From an uncultured Planctomycetaceae bacterium (GTDB lineage Bacteria; Planctomycetota; Phycisphaerae; SM23-33), in NCBI GenBank assembly GCA_964449105.1, contig CAYUYD010000003.1:1-33167 (forward strand): 33,167 nt of DNA, written 5' to 3'. Positions 3,439 to 32,975 of this stretch are shown here, piece by piece. Under the pieces are notes generated by a model, which worked only from the letters and a program-made list of their open reading frames with translations, ran no database searches and was not told the origin of the DNA. The translations under genes were made by a program, and so were the position numbers. Each line of letters opens with the position of its first letter. The stretch's first letter is position 1.

Positions 3439-4044
3439 TCACTCTACTGCCAATTCAACCTGCTCAACCAGTCTGGCCAAATCCAGCGGCTTAGGCAGGC
3501 ATATTTTCGCGCCGCAGTCCAGTATCCGACGGTTATTTTCGTCGGACGGATAGGCTGTAATTGCAATAACATCAGCATGTTTGGTCGCTTCCTGGGATTT
3601 AATCATCCGGCAGACCTCGAATCCGTCCATGCCCGGCATTCGCAGGTCCAGGATAACAACGTCGGGCTTAAGTGTCGCCACGACAGTCCCTGCCCGGAAA
3701 CCGTCTTGCACCTCTACAATTTCGTAATCAGGATGCGAATGCCCTATCGCCCTGGCGATTATCCGCGTCGCGTCCGGCTCATCATCGACTATCAGCACAC
3801 GCACCGGCACCTGCTCCAATCCAGCAGGGACCGGCATCTTGTGTTCACGCAGGAACCGCACAAGGTCATCGACGGCCACACGCCTGTGCCCCCCCGGAGT
3901 TCGATGAGCCTTCAACACACCGCTGTCAATCCAGTTTGCAACCGAACCGGGATCAACCTCGATCATCTCGGCGATATCAAACGTTGACAGGTTCCTTTTG
4001 CCTGCCTGGTCGCCTCGAGTCGATCTCCTGTCGCGCTTGCCCAT
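3439..4044 (-). CDS. Response regulator with N-terminal excisionase/MerR-type HTH (HTH_17-like) and C-terminal receiver domain
   Basis: ATG 4044 (MGKRDRR) is preceded by AAGGTGA. The HTH is LSTFDIAEMIEVDPGSVANWIDSGVLKAHRTPGGHRRV. The receiver has all canonical residues: LIVDDEP, VVILDLRMPGMDG, IAITAY, LPKP. Confidence 0.85.
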   Translation of the reverse strand: MGKRDRRSTRGDQAGKRNLSTFDIAEMIEVDPGSVANWIDSGVLKAHRTPGGHRRVAVDDLVRFLREHKMPVPAGLEQVPVRVLIVDDEPDATRIIARAIGHSHPDYEIVEVQDGFRAGTVVATLKPDVVILDLRMPGMDGFEVCRMIKSQEATKHADVIAITAYPSDENNRRILDCGAKICLPKPLDLARLVEQVELAVE

Positions 4045-4104
4045 CTCTGTTTCACCTTTTCCCGACCAACCTGTATTATAATCGACCAAAATATGATTCG
4101 CCTA

Positions 4105-5123: not shown

Positions 5124-5153
5124 GTCTCAATTTCCAGTTGCCAATTTTCGATT

Positions 5154-5184
5154 GCCCTTCGGGGCGCCTTCGGCGTCCGCTTTT
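5154..5184 (+). terminator. Two small UUCG-loop hairpins followed by TTTT downstream of tRNA-Lys
   Basis: The elements are GCCC-TTCG-GGGC, then GGCGCC-TTC-GGCGTC, then CGCTTTT. Confidence 0.4.
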
Positions 5185-5684
5185 CAATTGGAATTTTGAT
5201 GTCAGGTCAGCGTTTCCGTTACGCTGCCGCCATTGCGGCGTTGGTGCTCGGAGCGGGGATTGCGTTCCTGCCTCCGCTGATTGGGCGGGCGAGTATTACG
5301 AACTCTACACGAACCAGTACACCGAACAGCGCCAGGCCGAAATCCTCGCCGGCGGGGATTAAGGGGTGCCATGCCCTCACCCGTCTTCGGGGGTGGGCAT
5401 GTAACGCATCATGCTTACCCGCTTCGCGTGAAAGCATGGGACACAGGGACAGATACCTTAATTCGGTGGTAGCGCACTGACAAATTGACAGACAGATCGA
5501 CAAAATTGACAGGTGGAATCGGGGAAAATAACGGCATTATCGCGGCTGGATTTTTTTGAAAGATTTTATCTTCCGGCCAGGCCGGGCTTTGCCGAATCCC
5601 ACATCTTTTCCGGTGCCGCGTTTGCACCACAAAAGCGAGGGCGTCGATAGGACGCTTGGTAGATATTTGACAATAGAAGAAAGA

Positions 5685-5897
5685 CCGGATTACCGGAGGA
5701 CCGGAATACCGGATTGCCGGAAGACTGGGCATTAGGCATTGGGCATTGGTGGCCGATGGTTATGGAACGCTCGGCCATTATGTCCTGCGGTTTTGTCGAA
5801 TCGGGAAATGAAACAGAAAAATTCGTAACTAACATTATGCCACCAATGCCAAATGCCGAGTGCCAAATGCCTTTCTCTAATCCACAATCCGCAATGG
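5685..5897. repeat. Composite periodic/inverted repeat element
   Basis: CCGGAnTnCCGGA units occur at 5685-5722. The inverted arms are GGGCATTAGGCATTGGGCATTGGTGG (5727-5752) and CCACCAATGCCAAATGCCGAGTGCCAAATGCC (5840-5871). The AATCCACAATCCGCA motif (5879-5897) recurs at 29290-29311. Confidence 0.6.
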
Positions 5898-6000
5898 TAC
5901 TCTGGGCCGTTTGGGTAAAATAGGCAAGGGCGAAATTTGAAAAATGAGCAAAAAATGACACCGAAAATCGCAAGTCCTTACACGTCAAGGAGTTACGCTT

Positions 6001-6130
6001 TTCGCCTTCTTTCCCAAACTTTCCTAAACTTTCCTAAACTTTCCTAAACTTTCCTAAACTTTCCTAAACTTTCCCAATCTTTCCGAATCTTTCCGTTTCG
6101 TTCCCAATCGTTCCGTTTCGTTCCGGGGTC
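6001..6130. repeat. Tandem array of about 13 units of a 10-bp repeat (core TTCCTAAACT x5 perfect, degenerating outward)
   Basis: Successive 10-mers are ttcgccttct, ttcccaaact, ttcctaaact x5, ttcccaatct, ttccgaatct, ttccgtttcg, ttcccaatcg, ttccgtttcg, ttccggggtc. TTCC is held in strict 10-bp phase. The array ends 8 bp from the stop codon of the minus-strand gene at 6139. Confidence 0.9.
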
Positions 6131-6138
6131 CGCTTGGG

Positions 6139-8586
6139 TTACTTGACGCCGTAGAGCGCCTCTCGGTCGATGTTTCCTTCGAGGTCCCTGAGGATGTCGG
6201 GCAGTTCGACGCCGTCGCGGGCGGCAATCAGGCGCCCCATCGCCAGCGACACCGACAGGATCGCGTTCATGCCGAGGTTGGCCTTTCGCTGCATGACGGC
6301 TACCTGCTCATCGGCGCCGGCGCTGGCGGCCAACTTTTTGCGCTCGACAGCGACCTTGCGTTCGAGGTCCAGCATCTGCTTATCAACGTCGAACAGCCCG
6401 CCGACCTCGGCCAACGTCTTGCCCACGAACAGCGGGGCGATATACTTCTCGACGTTATCAACGGCATTGAGACAGCCCTTGCCTTTGTAACGCTGCGCCC
6501 GCCGCCACAGCTCCGACAGATCCTTGTCGTTCTTGCCATTGACGGTATCGTTGTTCACGTCCTTCTTGAAGGCGAAGGTTTTTCCGCTGTCCTTGCTGGC
6601 GAACAGGGTCGGATGCTTATCGGTGGCCTGGCACTTCTCGACGATGCTGTCGATCAGGTGGCTGGCTTCATCGCTGCCTGCCGATGTTCCCAGCGGCGTT
6701 GCGCCGGTGAAGGTTACGCCGTTCTCGAGACGGACGCTGACGCCGACCGTCGGGATTCCGGCGTTGGTGGCCTCTTCGCGGGCCAGGATAGCGGCTATCT
6801 TCAGGTCGGATTCCAGCGGGCGGGTAACCTTGATGCCCTTGGCGAGCATGTCCATCAGTTCGGTGATGCGGGCGTACTTTATCAGGCGTTCCGTGTTGGA
6901 CCCGCCGCCGCACTTCAGCGCCATGGCATCGACCGCGAAGCCGATGTCGGCCTCCATCGTGTCGTTGGGGCTTTTGGAGCGGTGGGAAACGACCAGCGCA
7001 GCCCCCCTGCTTTTGGCGGCATGAGTGGCCAGGAGCGTCTCGCAAAGCGAACCGATCTGGTTGGCCTTGACGAGGACGGTGTTCATCAGCCCGTCCTCTA
7101 TGGCCTTGATAATGTTGGTGTCCTTGGTGGTAACAAGGTCGTCGCCGATGATGAAGATGGTGTCGCCAAGTTCCTTCATCATCATCTTCCAGCCTTCCGG
7201 GTCGTCCTCGGCATGGCCGTCCTCGATGGAGACGATGGGGTACCTTGCGACCCAGTCCTTGTACATCTCCACGAGTTCTTCGCTGGTCATAACCTTGGGT
7301 TCTTCGGCCCGCCAGAAGGAATACTGTCCGATGGCGTCGGTCCGTCCGGTCTCTTCGCGGAAGGCGACGCTCAGTTCGGTTGCAGCCGGGTCAAGCGCCA
7401 GGGCGACGTCCACGCCCGGTATGAATCCACACTCCTCAATGGCCTGGACGGCGACCTTGAGTGCGCGTTCTTCGGGGATGGCGTCGTCGCCGCGTCTGCT
7501 GTAAGCGCCGACCATTCCGCCTTCAAGACCGATGCCGACGAAGTTCATGCCTTCGGAATCCTGGACGATCTGGATGACGCGGCTTTGAAGGGCGTTTGTC
7601 ATCCGCTGGGCCTCGACGTAATTCGTGGCAGAGAGGGGAAGGAACATGAATTCCTGGAAGGAGAGGTTTCCGCCCTGCTCCTCGGTGTGCCGACCGCCCA
7701 TGAGGCAGTTTCGGAACTGCCAAGGCGCGCGGACCGCCTTGCCGTCCACGTTGATTTCGCGGAGGCGGGTTTCCAGCATCTTCTTCTTTATGCCGGCGGT
7801 GTCCCATTTGCCGGCTGCGGCCGCACGACGGGCTTCCGCCGCCTTTGCGGCTGCACCGGACTGGCGGGCACGGAAACCCTTGAGCGCACCGTGGTCGGCC
7901 AACATGCGGTCAAGCAACGCCACGATGCCTATCGTTGCAAGTAATCGGCCTATGATGAGCACCAGGTTCATTCCGCCGATTGTCGCGCCGGTCAGCACCG
8001 TCAGCGACAGAGTTGACAATACAACCCCCAACGGCAGCGTCGCCATGGACAGTTTGGCGCTGATGGTGGGACCGGCAGCCGAGACCGCCAGGTTCTGGGT
8101 CTTGACGTCCGGGAAAAAATTACCGGCCTCTTTCTTGATGCCGGGGAACTTCCCGAACGGTATAAGCAGAATCGCCTTAAGGTACAGGCCGAACTTGTTC
8201 GTCGCCAGTTGCCTGTCGGCCGATTCGAGGTATTCCGGACGGAGGTTGTTGGTCCGCACCGCCGCCAGGTAATGGCCTAACTCGTGGATGGCAATGTTGA
8301 GGTGATACGAGAGGTACAGGATAATCGCCGAAACGATTACTTCCCCGTGGATGGGATTGAACATGAAGTTCAGCACCTTCCACTTTGTCCATATCTTGTC
8401 GGTCCCCAGCATCAGCAGGCTCGACAGGAACGCCACGTGGAAGGAAACGAGTTTATGGTTTGCGATGACCCATCCTTCTTCCAGGAGTCCCGGTCGCCAG
8501 GAAGGTCTCATCCTTCCGCCGGAGCGGATTCTGCCGATAAGATTTACTATACCTTCATATACCTTCACAGATGTGCTGCCCGACAT
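6139..8586 (-). CDS. Membrane M50/site-2-protease-like domain fused to a circularly permuted enolase (Enolase_C barrel followed by Enolase_N domain)
   Basis: ATG 8586 (MSGSTSV) is preceded by GAAAGGA. The N-terminal ~245 aa have TM segments with HELGH inside a helix, then IPFGKFPG, AAGP and ALLD motifs in M50 order. Residues ~290-600 match the enolase barrel: LMGGRH, SFQEFMFLP, GLEGG, ALALDPAATE, YPIVSIEDG, IIGDDLVTT, LVKANQIGS, VVSHRSKSPNDTMEADI, ALKCGG. Residues ~605-815 match the enolase N-domain: KIAAILAREEATNAGIPTVGVSVRLENG, TPLGTSAGSDEA, YKGKGCLNAVDNV, LGMNAILSVSLA. Confidence 0.85.
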   Translation of the reverse strand: MSGSTSVKVYEGIVNLIGRIRSGGRMRPSWRPGLLEEGWVIANHKLVSFHVAFLSSLLMLGTDKIWTKWKVLNFMFNPIHGEVIVSAIILYLSYHLNIAIHELGHYLAAVRTNNLRPEYLESADRQLATNKFGLYLKAILLIPFGKFPGIKKEAGNFFPDVKTQNLAVSAAGPTISAKLSMATLPLGVVLSTLSLTVLTGATIGGMNLVLIIGRLLATIGIVALLDRMLADHGALKGFRARQSGAAAKAAEARRAAAAGKWDTAGIKKKMLETRLREINVDGKAVRAPWQFRNCLMGGRHTEEQGGNLSFQEFMFLPLSATNYVEAQRMTNALQSRVIQIVQDSEGMNFVGIGLEGGMVGAYSRRGDDAIPEERALKVAVQAIEECGFIPGVDVALALDPAATELSVAFREETGRTDAIGQYSFWRAEEPKVMTSEELVEMYKDWVARYPIVSIEDGHAEDDPEGWKMMMKELGDTIFIIGDDLVTTKDTNIIKAIEDGLMNTVLVKANQIGSLCETLLATHAAKSRGAALVVSHRSKSPNDTMEADIGFAVDAMALKCGGGSNTERLIKYARITELMDMLAKGIKVTRPLESDLKIAAILAREEATNAGIPTVGVSVRLENGVTFTGATPLGTSAGSDEASHLIDSIVEKCQATDKHPTLFASKDSGKTFAFKKDVNNDTVNGKNDKDLSELWRRAQRYKGKGCLNAVDNVEKYIAPLFVGKTLAEVGGLFDVDKQMLDLERKVAVERKKLAASAGADEQVAVMQRKANLGMNAILSVSLAMGRLIAARDGVELPDILRDLEGNIDREALYGVK

Positions 8587-8776
8587 TATATTTTTCCTTT
8601 CTTTTCCCTGATTTTTGACAATCAATTAGGGGATTCCCGATTACATTGTGGCCGAAAGGCCCGTAAAAAACCGAGGCAGTATCGCATTATAATCGGTGAA
8701 ATGCAATAGTTGAGTTGGCGAGGCATGAAAGTTTCTTTCCACGCGCCGGCTTGGCGATACAATAAAGCAATCGCAT

Positions 8777-9895
8777 ATGTTACAGGTATCCGTCAACAAC
8801 ATATCCGGCCCGACATCGGGCAGGTCCGTTCACGTAGGCCTGGTCGCAGGCGGTCAGACGCTTTGCAACCTCGGTCCGGTGGTTCGGCACATGATAGTCG
8901 GGCTGCTGGATGAACCGCTGCCGGTAACGCTGTTTTGCCCGGCCAAAACGGACGTCGTAAATATCCCCGCCCCGCCGGTGCAGATTATCGAGTATGACAC
9001 GACCCGCCTTCCGTTTCTCCGTGAACGGGCGTTCGATGCCCTTGTCCAGCAGGTCGCCCAGTCCGGCATATCTCTGCTGCACGCCCTTGATACCGATGCG
9101 GCGGGTCTTACGGGCAGACTGGCAGCCGAAGTGGATGTGGATTATATCATCGGTATATATTCGCTTGTCCGGGATGTGAGGCCGCTGGATATGCACTGCC
9201 GGGCGGTCCTCGCCGCCAGCGAGCCGATCCGCCAGCGCTTGCTGAATTCGCATATCGGTCCGGCGGAGATGGTCCATCTGCTCCGGCCTGGGGTTCACCA
9301 GTCCCACGAGGCTACGTGCTTTGTCAATCCCGCCCTTTCCACCGCCATTGTAGCAGGAGGGGTATTTCAGGAACACAGACCTTTCGCCACGGTTCTGGAG
9401 GTGTTCGCCCAACTGCAAAAGTCGCGGCAGGATTGCGTTTTTTTCGTCGTAGGCAGCGGCCCGGACGAAGTACGCCTCCGACGACTGTCAGAAAAACTGG
9501 GCCTGACGGCGAACCTGACCTTTGTGGACCGGCAAGGCCCTGACGAACTAAAGGACATCCTTCGCGCCGCCGACATCTTCATCTCGCCAGCGCCGTCAAA
9601 CCGTTTGGAGATAGAACTTCTATCGGCGATGGCGGCGGGCGTTCCGGTCATCGCCGCCGGGACGAAGGTCTGCGATTTCATTATTCCGGACGAAACGGCA
9701 CTGACGTACCGCTCCGGCAGCGCCTCTGAACTGGCCGACAAACTCGCCTTACTGATGGACGACCATTACGCCGCTAAAAAACTCGCGGAAAAGGCGCTCG
9801 AATATCTTCGCAAAAACCACTCGCCGGCAAAGATGGCCAGCCAATTGATCGACCTGTATTACGCCGTTACAGGAAAGAAAAGACCCGTGAGTTAG
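8777..9895 (+). CDS. Glycosyltransferase, GT-B fold (family 1/4-like)
   Basis: The C-terminal half is typical of the family: VFFVVGSGPDEVRLRRLSEKLGLTANLTFVDRQGPDELKDILRAADIFISPA, EIELLSAMAAGVPVIAAG. The N-terminal Rossmann half is divergent. Length is 372 aa. Confidence 0.8.
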   Translation: MLQVSVNNISGPTSGRSVHVGLVAGGQTLCNLGPVVRHMIVGLLDEPLPVTLFCPAKTDVVNIPAPPVQIIEYDTTRLPFLRERAFDALVQQVAQSGISLLHALDTDAAGLTGRLAAEVDVDYIIGIYSLVRDVRPLDMHCRAVLAASEPIRQRLLNSHIGPAEMVHLLRPGVHQSHEATCFVNPALSTAIVAGGVFQEHRPFATVLEVFAQLQKSRQDCVFFVVGSGPDEVRLRRLSEKLGLTANLTFVDRQGPDELKDILRAADIFISPAPSNRLEIELLSAMAAGVPVIAAGTKVCDFIIPDETALTYRSGSASELADKLALLMDDHYAAKKLAEKALEYLRKNHSPAKMASQLIDLYYAVTGKKRPVS

Positions 9896-10182
9896 ACTGG
9901 CGCTTTGCACATTTCGGCGAGGTCGATTCCCGCAAGTTCGGGGGCGTCTAACTGATCTGCAAGCCGATGCATCAGTTCCCCGTCAGCCTGCTCGGCATTC
10001 AGGAACTCTACGCCCAGCAGATTTCCCTCGGCATCGTAGTCCGCCATTATGGAAGCCGGTTCTATCACCACGGTGTTCTTGACCTGACCTGTCGCGATGT
10101 CTGTAACATAGACGTAGCCCAGAACGCCGGTTTCGGTCGCCTCAAGCGTAATACGCAGAGATTTCAATTCGCCTTTGACCAT
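9892..10182 (-). CDS. DUF2283-family small protein (putative antitoxin partner)
   Basis: The 96-aa protein includes LRITLEATETGVLGYVYV...IMADYDAEGNLLGVEFLNAEQ, which fits the DUF2283 pattern as I recall it. It overlaps the upstream DUF4258 gene by 19 nt. Confidence 0.7.
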   Translation of the reverse strand: MVKGELKSLRITLEATETGVLGYVYVTDIATGQVKNTVVIEPASIMADYDAEGNLLGVEFLNAEQADGELMHRLADQLDAPELAGIDLAEMCKAPV

Positions 10183-10427
10183 AACACCGTCTTCACGAGC
10201 AGTATGCTTTCGTGTGACAACTCTTCAATCGCTACTACAAGTATTCTATCCCAATCTGCAAGATATTTGGTCAATATTTTTCCTCCATGGACCATATCCG
10301 TTTCTACGGAATCAGGACTATCTATCGCTTCGCGGACATCTTCCTCTTCGATAAGTCGCTCCTCAATGCGACGCCTTGCGTGAGCGGTGAACTGAATGTA
10401 CCAACCTTCATACATCTCTTCATTCAC
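10164..10427 (-). CDS. DUF4258-family protein (putative toxin)
   Basis: The 87-aa protein includes YIQFTAHARRRIEERLIEEEDVREAI, which matches the DUF4258 signature (F/T-x-HAxxRMxERxI). Its start is 3 nt after the dapA stop. Confidence 0.7.
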   Translation of the reverse strand: MNEEMYEGWYIQFTAHARRRIEERLIEEEDVREAIDSPDSVETDMVHGGKILTKYLADWDRILVVAIEELSHESILLVKTVLWSKAN

Positions 10428-27256: not shown

Positions 27257-29116
27257 TTACGGCAACAGCATCGCCATTGTGTAGGCGTTCTGAAAGTCCT
27301 TGTCGAGGTTCAGTTCGATTACTGTCGGGGCGGCGGCTACATGGGGGAGTTTCGCTCTGACCTCCTCATCCAGCAGCGCCACGAACGCGCCGGCCAGCGA
27401 ACCGTTGCCGAGGAATGTGTACTTTTCGCGGTCGATATCGGGCAGCAGTCCCATCGCCACGCAGTTGTCCAGGTCGATGTGGCGGGCGAACCCGCCGGCG
27501 AGGTAAAATTGCTTTATCTCATCGAAGCCCGCTCCGAAATGCTTCATGGCTGTCTGCAGCGCGGCGAAGATAACGCCCTTTGCCTGGAGCAGCGTTGCGA
27601 CGTCGCGCTCGGTAATCAGAATCGGTTTCAGCCCGTCGTCGGTCCGGTCGGCGGGGACGATCTCGTAGGCCGGTATCCCCTCGTCGGCACGAACGATGCG
27701 GGGGCATTTCGCCTTCGCCTCGTCGGTGAATCGCCCGGTCTGTGAAATCACGCCCGCGCGGCGCATCTGTGCGAGCAAGTCAATCAATCCGCTTCCGCAT
27801 ACGCCGGCGGGTTTGGTCTGGCCTATGACAGTGTAAGTCGGTTCGGCGTCAATCGCCTCCAGTGCGAATGCGTCAATCGCCCCTGTTGCCGCTCTCATGC
27901 CGCAGGTCAGCCCGCTTCCCTCGAAGGCGGGGCCCGCCGGTGCGGCGCAGGCTATTGAGCGGTCGCGGTTGCCCACAACTATCTCGGCATTGGTGCCGAT
28001 GTCGATCATCACCGTCAATTCCCGGTTTTCCGTCAGCCCGCAGACGTACATATCCGCCGTGATGTCCCCGCCGACGTAACCCGCAGACGATGGGAAAATA
28101 TCGACCAGCCCGTCGGGGTTCATCGCCAGTCGCAGTGAGTCGGCGCGATACGGGCCGGGGGAATTTGTTATCGGCGCGAACGGCACTCCGCCCATACCTG
28201 CCGGCGATATTCCGCAAAAAAGGTGCGTCATTATCGTATTGCCCGAAACGGTCATGTGCACCACATCCACCTGTTGCAGTCCATGCCGTTGGACCAGCAG
28301 ACCCAGCAGGCGGTTGACAGTCGATTCGACAACCAGGTTTCGCAGTTCCTCAAGCCGATCCGGAACGCCGGCGTAGGTAATCCGACCGGCGACGTCGTCG
28401 CAGCGGATAATCTGCTGATTGTATCCGCTGGCGGCATCGAGGATTTTCCCCGCCGCCAGATCGACCAGTGCGACCACAACCGTCGTGGTTCCGACATCGA
28501 CGGCGGCTGCGTAGAGGGCGGACGTCGTATCGCCCGGCTCGATGCGGATCAAATGCCACGTTCCGCCCTCTCCGGTGATGGTAACGGTCAGTTCGTACCC
28601 GGCGGCTGAAACCTGTTCCGCGGTGCGGGCGAGTTGCACCGACGAGTTTATCGGGCCTTCGCAGCCCCGCAGTCGCAGTTCGTCTATTATCCGTTCCAGG
28701 TCGCCTCGCGAGTCCTGGAGCGTTGGTTTCGGCAAGCGGAGGTATTCCTTTCGGACGGGCGGGCGGAGCGATCTCGGCGGCGTGTGGGCGAAGTCCATGA
28801 CAATCTTCTCACCCGCCGATACCAGGCTGTGACGGGGGATGCGGATCAGGAAATCGCCGCCCAGCAGTTGCGTCCGGCAGGCAAGCACTCGTTTGGCCTT
28901 GCCCGTATCGACCGCAATGACGCCGCCGTCAAGGCTGCTGAACCGTCCGGCAAGGACATCGACGGCGCACCCGCCGCACGTGCCGCCGCCGCCGCAGGCG
29001 ACGTTCAGGATCACACCAGCTCCGACGAAAAGGTCGGTCAGCAGACATGGCGCATCGGCCTGATATTCGATGCGACGGTCCGGTAATTCGATAATGCCTT
29101 GTGCTTTCGTAGCCAT
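27257..29116 (-). CDS. RACo-like corrinoid reductive activase (N-terminal 2Fe-2S ferredoxin domain plus ASKHA ATPase domain)
   Basis: The 2Fe-2S cysteines are CGGGGTCGGC...LACR (C-x5-C-x2-C...C). They are followed by ASKHA-type segments (AAVDVGTTTVVVALVD, MIDIGTNAEIVVGN, GSGLID). Length is 619 aa. Confidence 0.8.
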   Translation of the reverse strand: MATKAQGIIELPDRRIEYQADAPCLLTDLFVGAGVILNVACGGGGTCGGCAVDVLAGRFSSLDGGVIAVDTGKAKRVLACRTQLLGGDFLIRIPRHSLVSAGEKIVMDFAHTPPRSLRPPVRKEYLRLPKPTLQDSRGDLERIIDELRLRGCEGPINSSVQLARTAEQVSAAGYELTVTITGEGGTWHLIRIEPGDTTSALYAAAVDVGTTTVVVALVDLAAGKILDAASGYNQQIIRCDDVAGRITYAGVPDRLEELRNLVVESTVNRLLGLLVQRHGLQQVDVVHMTVSGNTIMTHLFCGISPAGMGGVPFAPITNSPGPYRADSLRLAMNPDGLVDIFPSSAGYVGGDITADMYVCGLTENRELTVMIDIGTNAEIVVGNRDRSIACAAPAGPAFEGSGLTCGMRAATGAIDAFALEAIDAEPTYTVIGQTKPAGVCGSGLIDLLAQMRRAGVISQTGRFTDEAKAKCPRIVRADEGIPAYEIVPADRTDDGLKPILITERDVATLLQAKGVIFAALQTAMKHFGAGFDEIKQFYLAGGFARHIDLDNCVAMGLLPDIDREKYTFLGNGSLAGAFVALLDEEVRAKLPHVAAAPTVIELNLDKDFQNAYTMAMLLP

Positions 29117-29183
29117 ATTTCACGAATTACGCGAATTATTGACCTTTGAATGGCAAAATAAACTTCGGCCTCTACGGAAACAA

Positions 29184-29280
29184 AGATAGCAGGATTTTAG
29201 GGATTACTGGATTACTGGATTTTTAAAATAACAAAAGAAAAATCCCTGTAATCTCAAAATCCCTGTAATCCCGCTCTCTT
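29184..29280. repeat. Intergenic inverted repeat, family 1 copy C
   Basis: The left arm GATAGCAGGATTTTAGGGATTACTGGATTACTGGATT pairs with AATCCCTGTAATCTCAAAATCCCTGTAATCCCGCTCTC. It is followed by AATCCGCAATCCACAATCCGCA (29290-29311). Confidence 0.7.
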
Positions 29281-29321
29281 TCTTTTTTTAATCCGCAATC
29301 CACAATCCGCACTCTGAAGGG

Positions 29322-30125
29322 TTATTTCAATTTTCCTTCGCGGTGTGCGGTAACGTAACTTACGCACCATTCATCGTCGGCGTTTATAACCTCGCCGGCC
29401 AACATCAGCGAAACCATGTTCGGCGTGCACGGGTCCACGATAGCGGCGTCCATCCCGAAATAGACAGCCGTCGCCACCATCGCCATGTTGATGAATTTTC
29501 GCCCCGGCAGGCCGAAACTCGTATTGCTAAGCCCGCCGCCGATATGGACGTCCGGGAACGTTTCGTGGATTATCCTGATGGCCTCGCAGGTATTCCGGGC
29601 GGACTGCGGGTCGGTCGAGACGGGGACGAAGCATGGGTCGATTATAATCTCATCGACTTTTTTCCCGACGGCGGTAATCCGCTCTACAAGGCTTTTGGCC
29701 CGTTCGACGCGGTCGTCGATGCCCGTAGGCATTCCGGCGTCGGACATGCAAAGCGCGATTACCATGCACTTGTGTTCAGCCAGTATGGGCAGAAAGGCCT
29801 CCATGCGTTCGGTCTCAAGGGAGACGGAATTGACTATAGGTTTCTTCTTCACCAGCGCCAGACCGGCCTTGATGGCGTCTATGTTGGCTGAATCAAGACA
29901 CAGCGGAACGTCAACGTTTTCCTGGACGAGTTTCACCAGCCATTCCATGTTGGCTACTTCGGCTCCAGCCTTCGGGTCTCCGCCGTTCAGATCGATGTAG
30001 TTCGCACCGGCGGCGACCTGTTCGACGGCAGTTGCGATAATGTACTGCTCATCCCTGCCTGCGACGGCGGCGGCGATGGACTTCCTCGTCGCGTTAATCT
30101 TCTCGCCAATTATGATCACAAGCAT
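29322..30125 (-). CDS. Methyltetrahydrofolate:corrinoid methyltransferase (AcsE/MeTr-like pterin-binding protein)
   Basis: IIGEKINATRKSI, NYIDLNGG, MEWLVKLVQENVDVPLCLDSANIDAIKAGL, NSVS, IIDPC, GLSNTSFGLP and MDAAIVDP align closely, from memory, with Moorella AcsE. Confidence 0.82.
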   Translation of the reverse strand: MLVIIIGEKINATRKSIAAAVAGRDEQYIIATAVEQVAAGANYIDLNGGDPKAGAEVANMEWLVKLVQENVDVPLCLDSANIDAIKAGLALVKKKPIVNSVSLETERMEAFLPILAEHKCMVIALCMSDAGMPTGIDDRVERAKSLVERITAVGKKVDEIIIDPCFVPVSTDPQSARNTCEAIRIIHETFPDVHIGGGLSNTSFGLPGRKFINMAMVATAVYFGMDAAIVDPCTPNMVSLMLAGEVINADDEWCVSYVTAHREGKLK

Positions 30126-32399: not shown

Positions 32400-32975
32400 C
32401 TATGAGATAAGGTCTGTGGCGGTTTCTATGACGGCGATGAGTTTATCGAACTTATACGGGCTGGAAACCACATCGTCGAACCCCTGCCGCAGAAGCATCC
32501 GCTTCTGCCCGCCGGGCAGCGTCCCCGCCAGTGCGATGATGCGGGTGGCAGCCAGGGATGAATTCAACCGCAGATTTTTGACAATTTCCTTCGTGTCCAT
32601 CGCATCGGCATGTACGTCCACGAGGATGACGTGCGGGTGGAAGTTGCCGGTCTTCATGCCGACCTCGAAGTCGTTGGAAGCGATCTGAAGTTCGTACCTA
32701 TCCACCCGGCAGAGGTCGTCGGCCAGGGCGGCTGCTTCGGAGTTCGACGGTGTTACCAGGAGGATGCGTGTAACGTTTCCCTCCAGTTCGGCCAGAGGCA
32801 TATCGTGGTCCTTCATAAACCGAACGAGTTGCATCAGCGGAATTCGCCTGTCCCTGCTGCCGGGGATTCGATAGCCTCGCAGCCGACCCGTATCGAACCA
32901 CTTGCTGACCGTGCGCGGCGCAACACAACAGATCTTCGCCACTTCCCCGGTTGTCAGGACTTCTTTTCGTCTCAT
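32400..32975 (-). CDS. HTH_17-type DNA-binding protein with degenerate (pseudo-)receiver domain; paralog of 3439-4044
   Basis: The HTH is LTTGEVAKICCVAPRTVSKWFDTGRLRGYRIPGSRDRRI. The receiver-like part keeps the phospho-acceptor position (VILVDVHADAMD). It lacks the acidic DD pair (LLVTPSN), and the T/S and KP positions are altered. Confidence 0.8.
   Translation of the reverse strand: MRRKEVLTTGEVAKICCVAPRTVSKWFDTGRLRGYRIPGSRDRRIPLMQLVRFMKDHDMPLAELEGNVTRILLVTPSNSEAAALADDLCRVDRYELQIASNDFEVGMKTGNFHPHVILVDVHADAMDTKEIVKNLRLNSSLAATRIIALAGTLPGGQKRMLLRQGFDDVVSSPYKFDKLIAVIETATDLIS

Follow-up and report, generated by a model that had tools for sequence, protein, structure and literature searches.

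Enolase is among the most conserved and architecturally uniform of enzymes. PPDK-type modules, such as those of rifampin phosphotransferase and of glucan, water dikinase, phosphorylate a substrate which is held by a non-PPDK domain; to our knowledge, no phosphotransferase built from an ATP-grasp and a swiveling histidine domain involves an enolase or a membrane protease. Site-2 proteases of the SpoIVFB/MjS2P type (M50B) possess six transmembrane (TM) helices, one of which holds an HExxH motif, and are linked to a soluble C-terminal CBS or PDZ domain. In SpoIVFB, the CBS domain dimerizes and touches the substrate (PMC9042235). The gene described here encodes a membrane domain resembling the M50 proteases, followed by an enolase whose two domains stand in reversed order. 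It occupies positions 6139..8586, on the minus strand, of a 33,167-nucleotide stretch of DNA from an uncultured Planctomycetaceae bacterium (contig CAYUYD010000003.1), referred to as the window.

The architecture of this fusion is near-certain. Both component domain families are known, and their combination and the permuted order are new: no permuted enolase, enolase-M50 fusion or enolase-dikinase pairing was found described in the searched literature, the PDB, Pfam, NCBIfam or PADLOC. This agrees with an initial annotation of the window, made from its letters alone, which had proposed the architecture and regarded it as undescribed. As the best overall explanation, to which we assign a probability of roughly one half, we favor an M50-like membrane domain and an enolase paralog acting together in a device linked to phosphoenolpyruvate (PEP). 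The mechanism proposed for this device is more tentative, with perhaps one chance in three of being correct.

Domain architecture and the two predicted active sites

The coding sequence is a complete, uninterrupted open reading frame (ORF) of 815 amino acids (aa) plus stop, running from an ATG at 8586 to a stop codon at 6139-6141. An alternative in-frame TTG at 8625 would yield 828 aa; the ATG is preferred, since the first residues of close homologues, 'MFSNVSAKIYEGIV...', align exactly with 'MSGSTSVKVYEGIV...' and the ATG follows a purine-rich stretch, AAAGGAAAAA. A Pfam scan returned the domain order which the initial annotation had predicted for its three-part, permuted architecture, namely a weak Peptidase_M50 (PF02163), then Enolase_C (aa 288-583, 197 bits, E = 4.7e-58) and then Enolase_N (aa 597-795, 56.6 bits, E = 4e-15, model positions 1-127 of 131), the two enolase matches lying above their gathering scores. 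The C-terminal part thus is the enolase N-domain it had been taken for. AlphaFold2, supplied with a 60-sequence alignment, modeled the whole protein with a predicted local distance difference test score (pLDDT) of 79.3 and a predicted TM-score (pTM) of 0.75, as four long membrane helices with a beta-hairpin, a stalk helix, a beta/alpha barrel and a capping domain of the beta3-plus-helices kind.

The protein begins with a basic, variable and poorly conserved tail (aa 1-33; 8488..8586; 7 K/R against 3 D/E), predicted to be cytoplasmic, and continues with the M50/site-2-protease-like membrane domain (aa 34-230; 7897..8487). A basic helical stalk rich in Ala, Lys and Arg (aa 231-276; 7759..7896), already recognized initially as an Ala/Lys-rich linker, connects the membrane domain to the enolase TIM barrel (aa 277-583; 6838..7758); 14 K/R fall across aa 228-290, and AlphaFold2 places helices at 234-256 and 263-272. 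A new connector of 13 aa (aa 584-596; 6799..6837) then bridges the old enolase C-terminus to the old N-terminus, and the capping ('N-terminal') domain now closes the chain (aa 597-815; 6142..6798), which by alignment ends at the point of the usual enolase inter-domain linker. Following the positive-inside rule, the basic N-tail and the basic stalk would place both termini, and hence the enolase part, in the cytoplasm, with both zinc motifs close to the membrane's cytoplasmic side.

PDB enolases match the barrel (up to 2.3e-52) and, separately, the capping domain further down the query, and such separate, order-reversed matches are the signature of a permutation. Foldseek, which aligns in sequence order, matched about 300 barrel columns to many enolases (TM-score about 0.57, target-normalized) and found no chain with the permuted domain order. 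As in canonical enolase (EC 4.2.1.11; PF03952 plus PF00113; TIGR01060), both domains are complete; the fusion differs in that the barrel precedes the cap, in its tethering to the membrane and in the replacement of the flap serine by Leu or Val.

Residue conservation was read from 199 complete modules, each unique, some of which lie inside giant proteins and are very divergent. All 199 retain the Mg ligands D399, E455 and D483 (yeast Asp246, Glu295 and Asp320), the acid/base pair K507/E355 (Lys345/Glu211) and the substrate-binding residues H300, E312, H535-R536-S537 and K558 (His159, Glu168, His373-Arg374-Ser375 and Lys396), so that the retention of the Mg ligands, the Lys/Glu pair and the HRS loop, claimed initially for the window protein, extends to the whole sample. 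The enolase motifs which had been quoted are likewise all present (GGRH, QEFMF, GLEGG, ALDP, SIEDG, GDDL, KANQIG, SHRSK, KCGG and TPLGTSAGSDEA), as are, in the order given for them, HELGH (101-105), IPFGKFPG (142-149), AAGP (170-173) and ALLD (223-226) of the membrane domain. The invariance of the catalytic residues favors real catalysis over sensing and thus, as far as conservation can tell, an active enolase module rather than a sensor.

Two points were missing from the initial annotation, namely the strand and the loss of the canonical flap serine. In the active-site flap TPLGTSAGSDEA (aa 630-641; 6664..6699), L632 occupies the position of yeast Ser39, a second-Mg ligand, and the canonical PSGASTG has become PLGTSAG; residue 632 is Leu in 196 modules, Val in 3 and never Ser. 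The flap serine is part of loop 36-43, the site at which the second, 'catalytic' Mg is bound, and has been called crucial for catalysis (PMC6859115). Other fixed departures from canonical enolase are GDEGG to GLEGG, SHRSG to SHRSK and four family-specific insertions. In the capping domain, alignment with canonical enolases reveals about 50 inserted aa which are specific to the family (aa 647-697; 6496..6648). The lowest AlphaFold2 confidence in the soluble part falls on 297-309 and 635-647, which by alignment are the mobile enolase loops L2 and L1, predicted to be flexible here as in the canonical enzyme. Arg299 of GGRH was considered as a family-specific stand-in for the second Mg and was dropped, since canonical enolases of Binatia and Terriglobales share GGRH.

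The membrane domain, modeled alone, reached pLDDT 86.7 and pTM 0.78. Its TM helices are predicted at about 39-59, 82-111, 166-196 and 208-228, and between the second and third lie two shorter helices and, after IPFG, a beta-hairpin at 150-159. The first helix carries N43-H44-K45 (8452..8460), of which N43 and H44 are nearly invariant. Inside the second lies HELGH, an HExxH zinc motif (aa 101-105; 8272..8286), with H101, E102 and H105 each kept in 198 of the 199 modules. The segment which starts with IPFGKFPG and runs through the hairpin (aa 142-159; 8110..8163) aligns with the LLPFGG motif of SpoIVFB, and AAGP, the M50 'AGP' motif with which the third helix begins (aa 170-173; 8068..8079; G 198/199, P 199/199), aligns with its IIAGP. 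Near the cytoplasmic end of the fourth helix, LLD (aa 224-226; 7909..7917) provides D226, the presumed third zinc ligand, which is present in 197/199. This site consists of an (L/F)D that closes helix 208-228, and the Asn, Pro and Gly of NxxPxxxLDG are absent. The last M50 motif had rightly been called degenerate for want of NxxP, and protease activity had been considered uncertain on that ground; the degeneracy stands, but the retention of D226 makes competence of the protease or zinc site likelier than was then held.

An alignment of the family profile with SpoIVFB by hhalign (SpoIVFB sequence 100% identical to PDB 8vjl) brings HELGH, PFG and AGP into collinear register over 58 columns with 43% identity (E = 0.0023). 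Furthermore, the Pfam M50 domain is detected at E <= 0.1 in 34 of 36 members tested, at best with 1.8e-7, and PF02163 is a precomputed domain in roughly a quarter of the homologues. With proteases of the SpoIVFB/MjS2P type, the fusion shares the HExxH within a TM helix, a collinear and similarly spaced series of PFG hairpin, AGP and later TM Asp, and a linker to a soluble C-terminal domain which could dimerize and dock ligands or substrates. It differs in having four TM helices instead of six, a last motif without NxxP, the additional conserved residues N43, H44, H50 and H95, and an enolase in place of a CBS or PDZ domain. The membrane domain is too divergent to retrieve any canonical M50 protein from 1.84 billion representatives at E <= 0.001, and no bona fide M50 gene was found in about 1.6 Mb of retrieved loci.

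Rare substitutions link further residues to the membrane site. In the protein P0237, HExxH has changed to TKxxQ together with D226E, and thus the whole M50 site is lost; in P0182, D226 is replaced by Asn; both retain all enolase residues. N43/H44 are substituted in these same two proteins, and also in P0228, where the M50 site stays. The coincidence in the two M50-site-substituted proteins suggests that N43 and H44 probably belong to the membrane active site. Taken at the level of sequence, the fusion would probably be an active enolase-type site tethered to a zinc site of the site-2-protease type.

Family, distribution and relation to canonical enolase

The search for proteins of the same architecture, which the initial annotation had proposed, returned more than 118 full-length homologues (about 790-850 aa, 57-90% identity), and among genomes taken one per species, 264 contained a relative. 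The lineage survey covers 80 loci listed of these 264 species-representative genomes. All 80 derive from uncultured metagenome-assembled genomes (MAGs) of at least seven lineages, among them Planctomycetota, Terriglobia/Acidobacteriota, Elusimicrobia, WOR-3, Stahlbacteria, Binatia and 'Deltaproteobacteria'; the closest to the window protein among the listed loci are from Planctomycetota (84-86% identity). The fusion is therefore not a lone oddity but represents a large family across several phyla. Source databases name its members only 'hypothetical protein' or, misleadingly, 'enolase', an annotation which pipelines still assign and which should be corrected. The family also adds a new type of soluble domain to a site-2 protease and lets circular permutation of a two-domain enzyme be studied in a natural example.

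The conservation of the enolase residues and of the M50 residues indicates that both active sites are under strong selection. With the membrane domain as sole query, 120 proteins (representatives at 50% identity) were retrieved from the same 1.84 billion representatives. Among the 36 matches of at least 500 aa, all but one weak match also carry the enolase, and the shorter ones look like frameshifted or truncated fragments of the same fusion gene; as far as observed, the two parts thus make up an obligate unit. P0131, with 420 aa and encoded on a contig of 3.9 kb, has a HATPase_c histidine-kinase domain attached to the membrane domain at the stalk. This is probably an assembly chimera, yet it is the sole hint of another partner.

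The permuted module is, by every sequence comparison made, a paralog and not the glycolytic housekeeping enolase. Against the eno equivalog model TIGR01060, the window protein scores 250 bits and an artificially un-permuted construct 264, both below the cutoff of 300, whereas three neighboring canonical eno products tested by hidden Markov model (HMM) score 608-639 bits and carry PSGASTG, GDEGG and SHRSGET. Such a separate canonical eno, for which a search had been suggested, stands beside the fusion in six genomes of relatives: a canonical N-to-C eno follows downstream on the same strand at 47 bp to 4 kb (L076:8627-9910, L039:8692-10023 and L032:12491-13864, and also in L075, L079 and L082). 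These loci belong to a WOR-3 chromosome (CP070664, 47 bp), a Binatia genome, two Stahlbacteria, an unclassified MAG and a Terriglobales MAG (4 kb), and in two of the loci, read in detail, the gap is 47-300 bp. For at least these six genomes, the permuted module as sole or housekeeping enolase is rejected. Identity amounts to 51-76% among permuted modules across phyla and to 54-59% among canonical enolases, compared with 33-38% between a permuted module and the canonical eno of the same genome, which implies that the permutation is ancient and monophyletic. In the Terriglobales MAG with eno at 4 kb, the fusion is present twice (L024 and L032).

The dikinase partner and the proposed function of the fusion

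In addition to its own two sites, the fusion has, in other lineages than that of the window, a recurrent partner. A PPDK-like gene of about 890 aa lies beside it in 52 of 86 loci, always convergently (L001:12442-15108, minus strand, and 51 other loci), and in 23 cases the 3' ends of the two genes abut or overlap by 4 bp. Reciprocally, the fusion is adjacent in 51 of 65 (78%) dikinase-selected metagenome loci with enough flank, three of the 51 lying in the same direction, about 150 bp apart, and the adjacent NCBI locus tags ACE14M_00545 and ACE14M_00550 confirm one fusion-dikinase pair. The dikinase family, also represented by the loci L086-L165, comprises more than 900 proteins, annotated merely as hypothetical or as generic PPDK, and Pfam recognizes them only weakly. 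The protein listing obtained with the dikinase profile is dominated by Terriglobia and is uninformative on stand-alone partners in Planctomycetota.

A profile of 28 dikinase sequences aligned with Clostridium symbiosum PPDK (1dik) over residues 18-513 (E = 1.8e-36). The match spans the ATP-grasp and phospho-histidine domains, with the invariant His of the partner, His554 in L001 numbering, on the catalytic His, and nothing in the profile matched the PEP/pyruvate barrel (PEP-utilizers_C). The partner thus shares with the PPDK/PEP synthase family the ATP-grasp domain, the phospho-His swivel domain and the catalytic His. It differs from that family in the missing PEP/pyruvate TIM barrel, and in two conserved regions, an N-terminal extension of about 135 aa and, at the C-terminus, an unrelated one of about 270 aa, and it is paired or fused with the M50-permuted-enolase module.

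The link is also physical, as single chains join the module to the dikinase in both orders. The module comes first in P0168 (2114 aa), P0276 (2163 aa) and a 2320-aa ORF of a Planctomycetota MAG (L081:3105-10067, plus strand), where the polypeptide stops immediately after the His domain, and the dikinase comes first in P0184 (1979 aa). P0276 shows PPDK_N with 58.9 bits and the mobile domain with 31.7 bits, and shares a 90%-identity cluster with a protein of a Candidatus Eiseniibacteriota MAG. A near-threshold HD-domain-like segment recurs on either side of the module and, in some fusions, between module and dikinase. Proteins of up to 6069 aa and tandem double modules exist as well. Giants which embed the module include P0177, P0271 and P0274 (6041-6069 aa), P0187, P0222, P0224 and P0194, some of them with two tandem modules; the remainder of these chains has no Pfam assignment. 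PADLOC gave no matches for the fusion, the dikinase partner or one giant fusion, and a known defense system was accordingly rejected.

The genomic and physical association with the dikinase changes the likeliest functional context of the fusion, and it points, by inference from gene order and domain fusion, to a PEP-linked phosphotransfer or regulatory role at the membrane. In the mechanism which we propose, the product would be a four-helix membrane protein with both ends in the cytoplasm and two seemingly competent catalytic parts. The first would be a site-2-protease (M50) core of divergent sequence, with the zinc ligands of HExxH and Asp lying by the cytoplasmic membrane face. The second, carried by the basic helical stalk, would be an enolase paralog, complete and with its cap moved behind the barrel in a circular permutation at the level of domains. 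This module may bind 2-phosphoglycerate (2-PG) and PEP with Mg at the inner membrane face and interconvert them, or act on a very close analogue, with a second-metal and flap chemistry that would be altered, as the flap Ser is Leu. Rather than serving glycolysis, it could be central to a device dedicated to PEP-linked phosphotransfer or regulation, in which the zinc site would cleave or bind a putative membrane substrate, coupled to the state of the enolase domain. The latter probably dimerizes the fusion, by analogy to SpoIVFB and its CBS domain. Such a device would suggest an unrecognized membrane process linked to PEP/2-PG in bacteria of soil, sediment and groundwater.

Several observations weigh against this explanation. 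The Peptidase_M50 match of the window protein reaches only 24.2 bits, under the gathering score of 27.2, the NxxP of the last M50 motif is missing from it, and the hhalign probability of the match to SpoIVFB is only 12%. A sequence profile of the membrane domain matched no solved site-2 protease in the PDB, and Foldseek returned nothing significant for this domain, MjS2P (3b4r) appearing at rank 14 (E = 0.72, 171 columns, root-mean-square deviation 6.9 Å). In the enolase part, the change of flap Ser to Leu, GLEGG and SHRSK render canonical enolase kinetics doubtful and leave room for a different substrate. Most dikinase pairs are convergent and hence not co-transcribed. Finally, canonical eno, the dikinase and the HD protein are each absent from the 33-kb window and from flanks of about 6-10 kb in its closest relatives; with no dikinase nearby in the clade of the window, the partnership is extrapolated to the window gene.

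A metabolite-gated intramembrane protease is possible, at odds well short of those of the PEP-linked device. The M50 domain would then be the effector, and 2-PG/PEP or energy status would be translated into regulated proteolysis of a signaling protein. The M50 catalytic residues, kept in 197-198 of the 199 modules, suit this proposal, as does the succession of membrane domain, linker and soluble C-terminal domain, which is that of SpoIVFB; the replacement of the flap Ser by Leu could slow turnover and favor sensing, and small two-TM proteins encoded directly downstream in Pirellulales loci are candidate substrates. However, the acid/base and metal residues of the enolase are invariant over deep divergence, where enzyme-derived sensors would usually be expected to lose some of them, and P0237 kept its enolase after losing the M50 site. 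The recurrent fusions with dikinase and HD-like domains better suit an enzymatic pathway, and no conserved anti-sigma/sigma pair was seen near the fusion in the loci inspected.

It is unlikely, though worth spelling out, that fusion and dikinase form a composite enzyme in which the permuted enolase barrel replaces the missing PEP/pyruvate TIM barrel of the partner. The swiveling phospho-His domain would dock at the active site of the enolase and trade phosphate with PEP (or 2-PG, or glycerate) which this site makes or holds, and the relocated flap-bearing cap together with the lost flap Ser would open that site to a protein partner. The truncated match of the partner to PPDK (18-513), which keeps the catalytic His and lacks PEP-utilizers_C, is what such a complementation would predict; the giants fused in cis which end right behind the His domain, the occurrence of fusions in both orders, the reciprocal adjacency of 78% and the flap Leu or Val in every module fit it as well. 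Yet the reading is purely inferential, the conserved C-terminal region of about 270 aa in the stand-alone partner could itself be the acceptor domain, the clade of the window has no partner nearby, and the M50 domain is left unexplained. Were it correct after all, a membrane-bound, PEP-driven phosphotransfer machine with the enolase barrel as PEP domain of the dikinase, and with its reaction linked to a zinc protease or hydrolase site inside the membrane, would constitute the first non-glycolytic role and the first topological variant in the enolase subgroup proper.

An anchored housekeeping enolase, whose M50-like part would be a decayed, inert relic, is improbable. It would account for the presence of all canonical catalytic residues bar the flap Ser and for the label 'enolase' which some sources give to members, but a canonical eno (608-639 bits) coexists, often next door, the module falls under the equivalog cutoff even when un-permuted and forms a separate deep clade at 33-38% identity to its cognate eno, and the M50 catalytic residues are strongly conserved. 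An assembly chimera or gene-calling artefact joining unrelated genes, a concern raised initially and suggested by nothing beyond the unusual domain order, can be dismissed with hardly any reservation, since the same unbroken order, with conserved connector and stalk, recurs across several phyla and several pipelines in hundreds of independent assemblies, with DNA collinear across both suspected junctions and over the entire gene, and in close relatives also into the neighboring glycosyltransferase gene.

Surroundings of the gene

The window is ordinary chromosomal DNA of a planctomycete whose lifestyle is probably anaerobic; it encodes DapA, PdxJ, RibD, malic enzyme, a RACo corrinoid activator, a pterin-binding methyltransferase, SppA, T2SS-F and three tRNAs. 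A conserved operon in the clade of the window was rejected: synteny exists at lineage level only, with a divergent GT1 glycosyltransferase, DapA and PdxJ, and the glycosyltransferase gene is syntenic within the clade only. Rfam, promoter and terminator scans around the fusion gene returned tRNAs only and no convincing terminator. The interval of about 1 kb which separates tRNA-Lys(CTT) from the 3' end of the gene (5124-6138) contains several short tandem repeats, with no convincing ORF and no Rfam match. Among these sequences is a 10-bp tandem array (6009-6125), 14-130 nt past the fusion stop codon, which consists of CTTTCCTAAA repeated 8.6 times and then degenerate TTCCGTTTCG copies, and which is found next to the gene in no relative.

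Small conserved ORFs follow the fusion gene in other lineages and are possible partners or substrates. In Pirellulales-type loci, an ORF of about 165 aa comes immediately after it (L080:6113-6607 and L084:5074-5592), a two-TM protein with hydrophobic segments at both termini and an apparently helical middle. In WOR-3 and Stahlbacteria, the following gene encodes a soluble protein of 186 aa without a Pfam match (L074:8721-9284, L078:8541-9101 and L085:2469-3029).

A DUF4258 (87 aa) and DUF2283 (96 aa) gene pair between the glycosyltransferase gene and dapA (9892-10427, minus strand) looks like an inserted two-gene cassette, and the DUF2283 gene also occurs in the close relative L004. Two response regulators of the window (3439-4089 and 32400-32975, both minus strand) carry an N-terminal HTH_17 of the excisionase type before the receiver domain, a type also present near the fusion in L004. 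Finally, a RACo-type corrinoid reductive activator is encoded beside a pterin-binding, CdhD-like methyltransferase (27257-30125, minus strand), a pair which suggests corrinoid-dependent methyl transfer and an anaerobic way of life.

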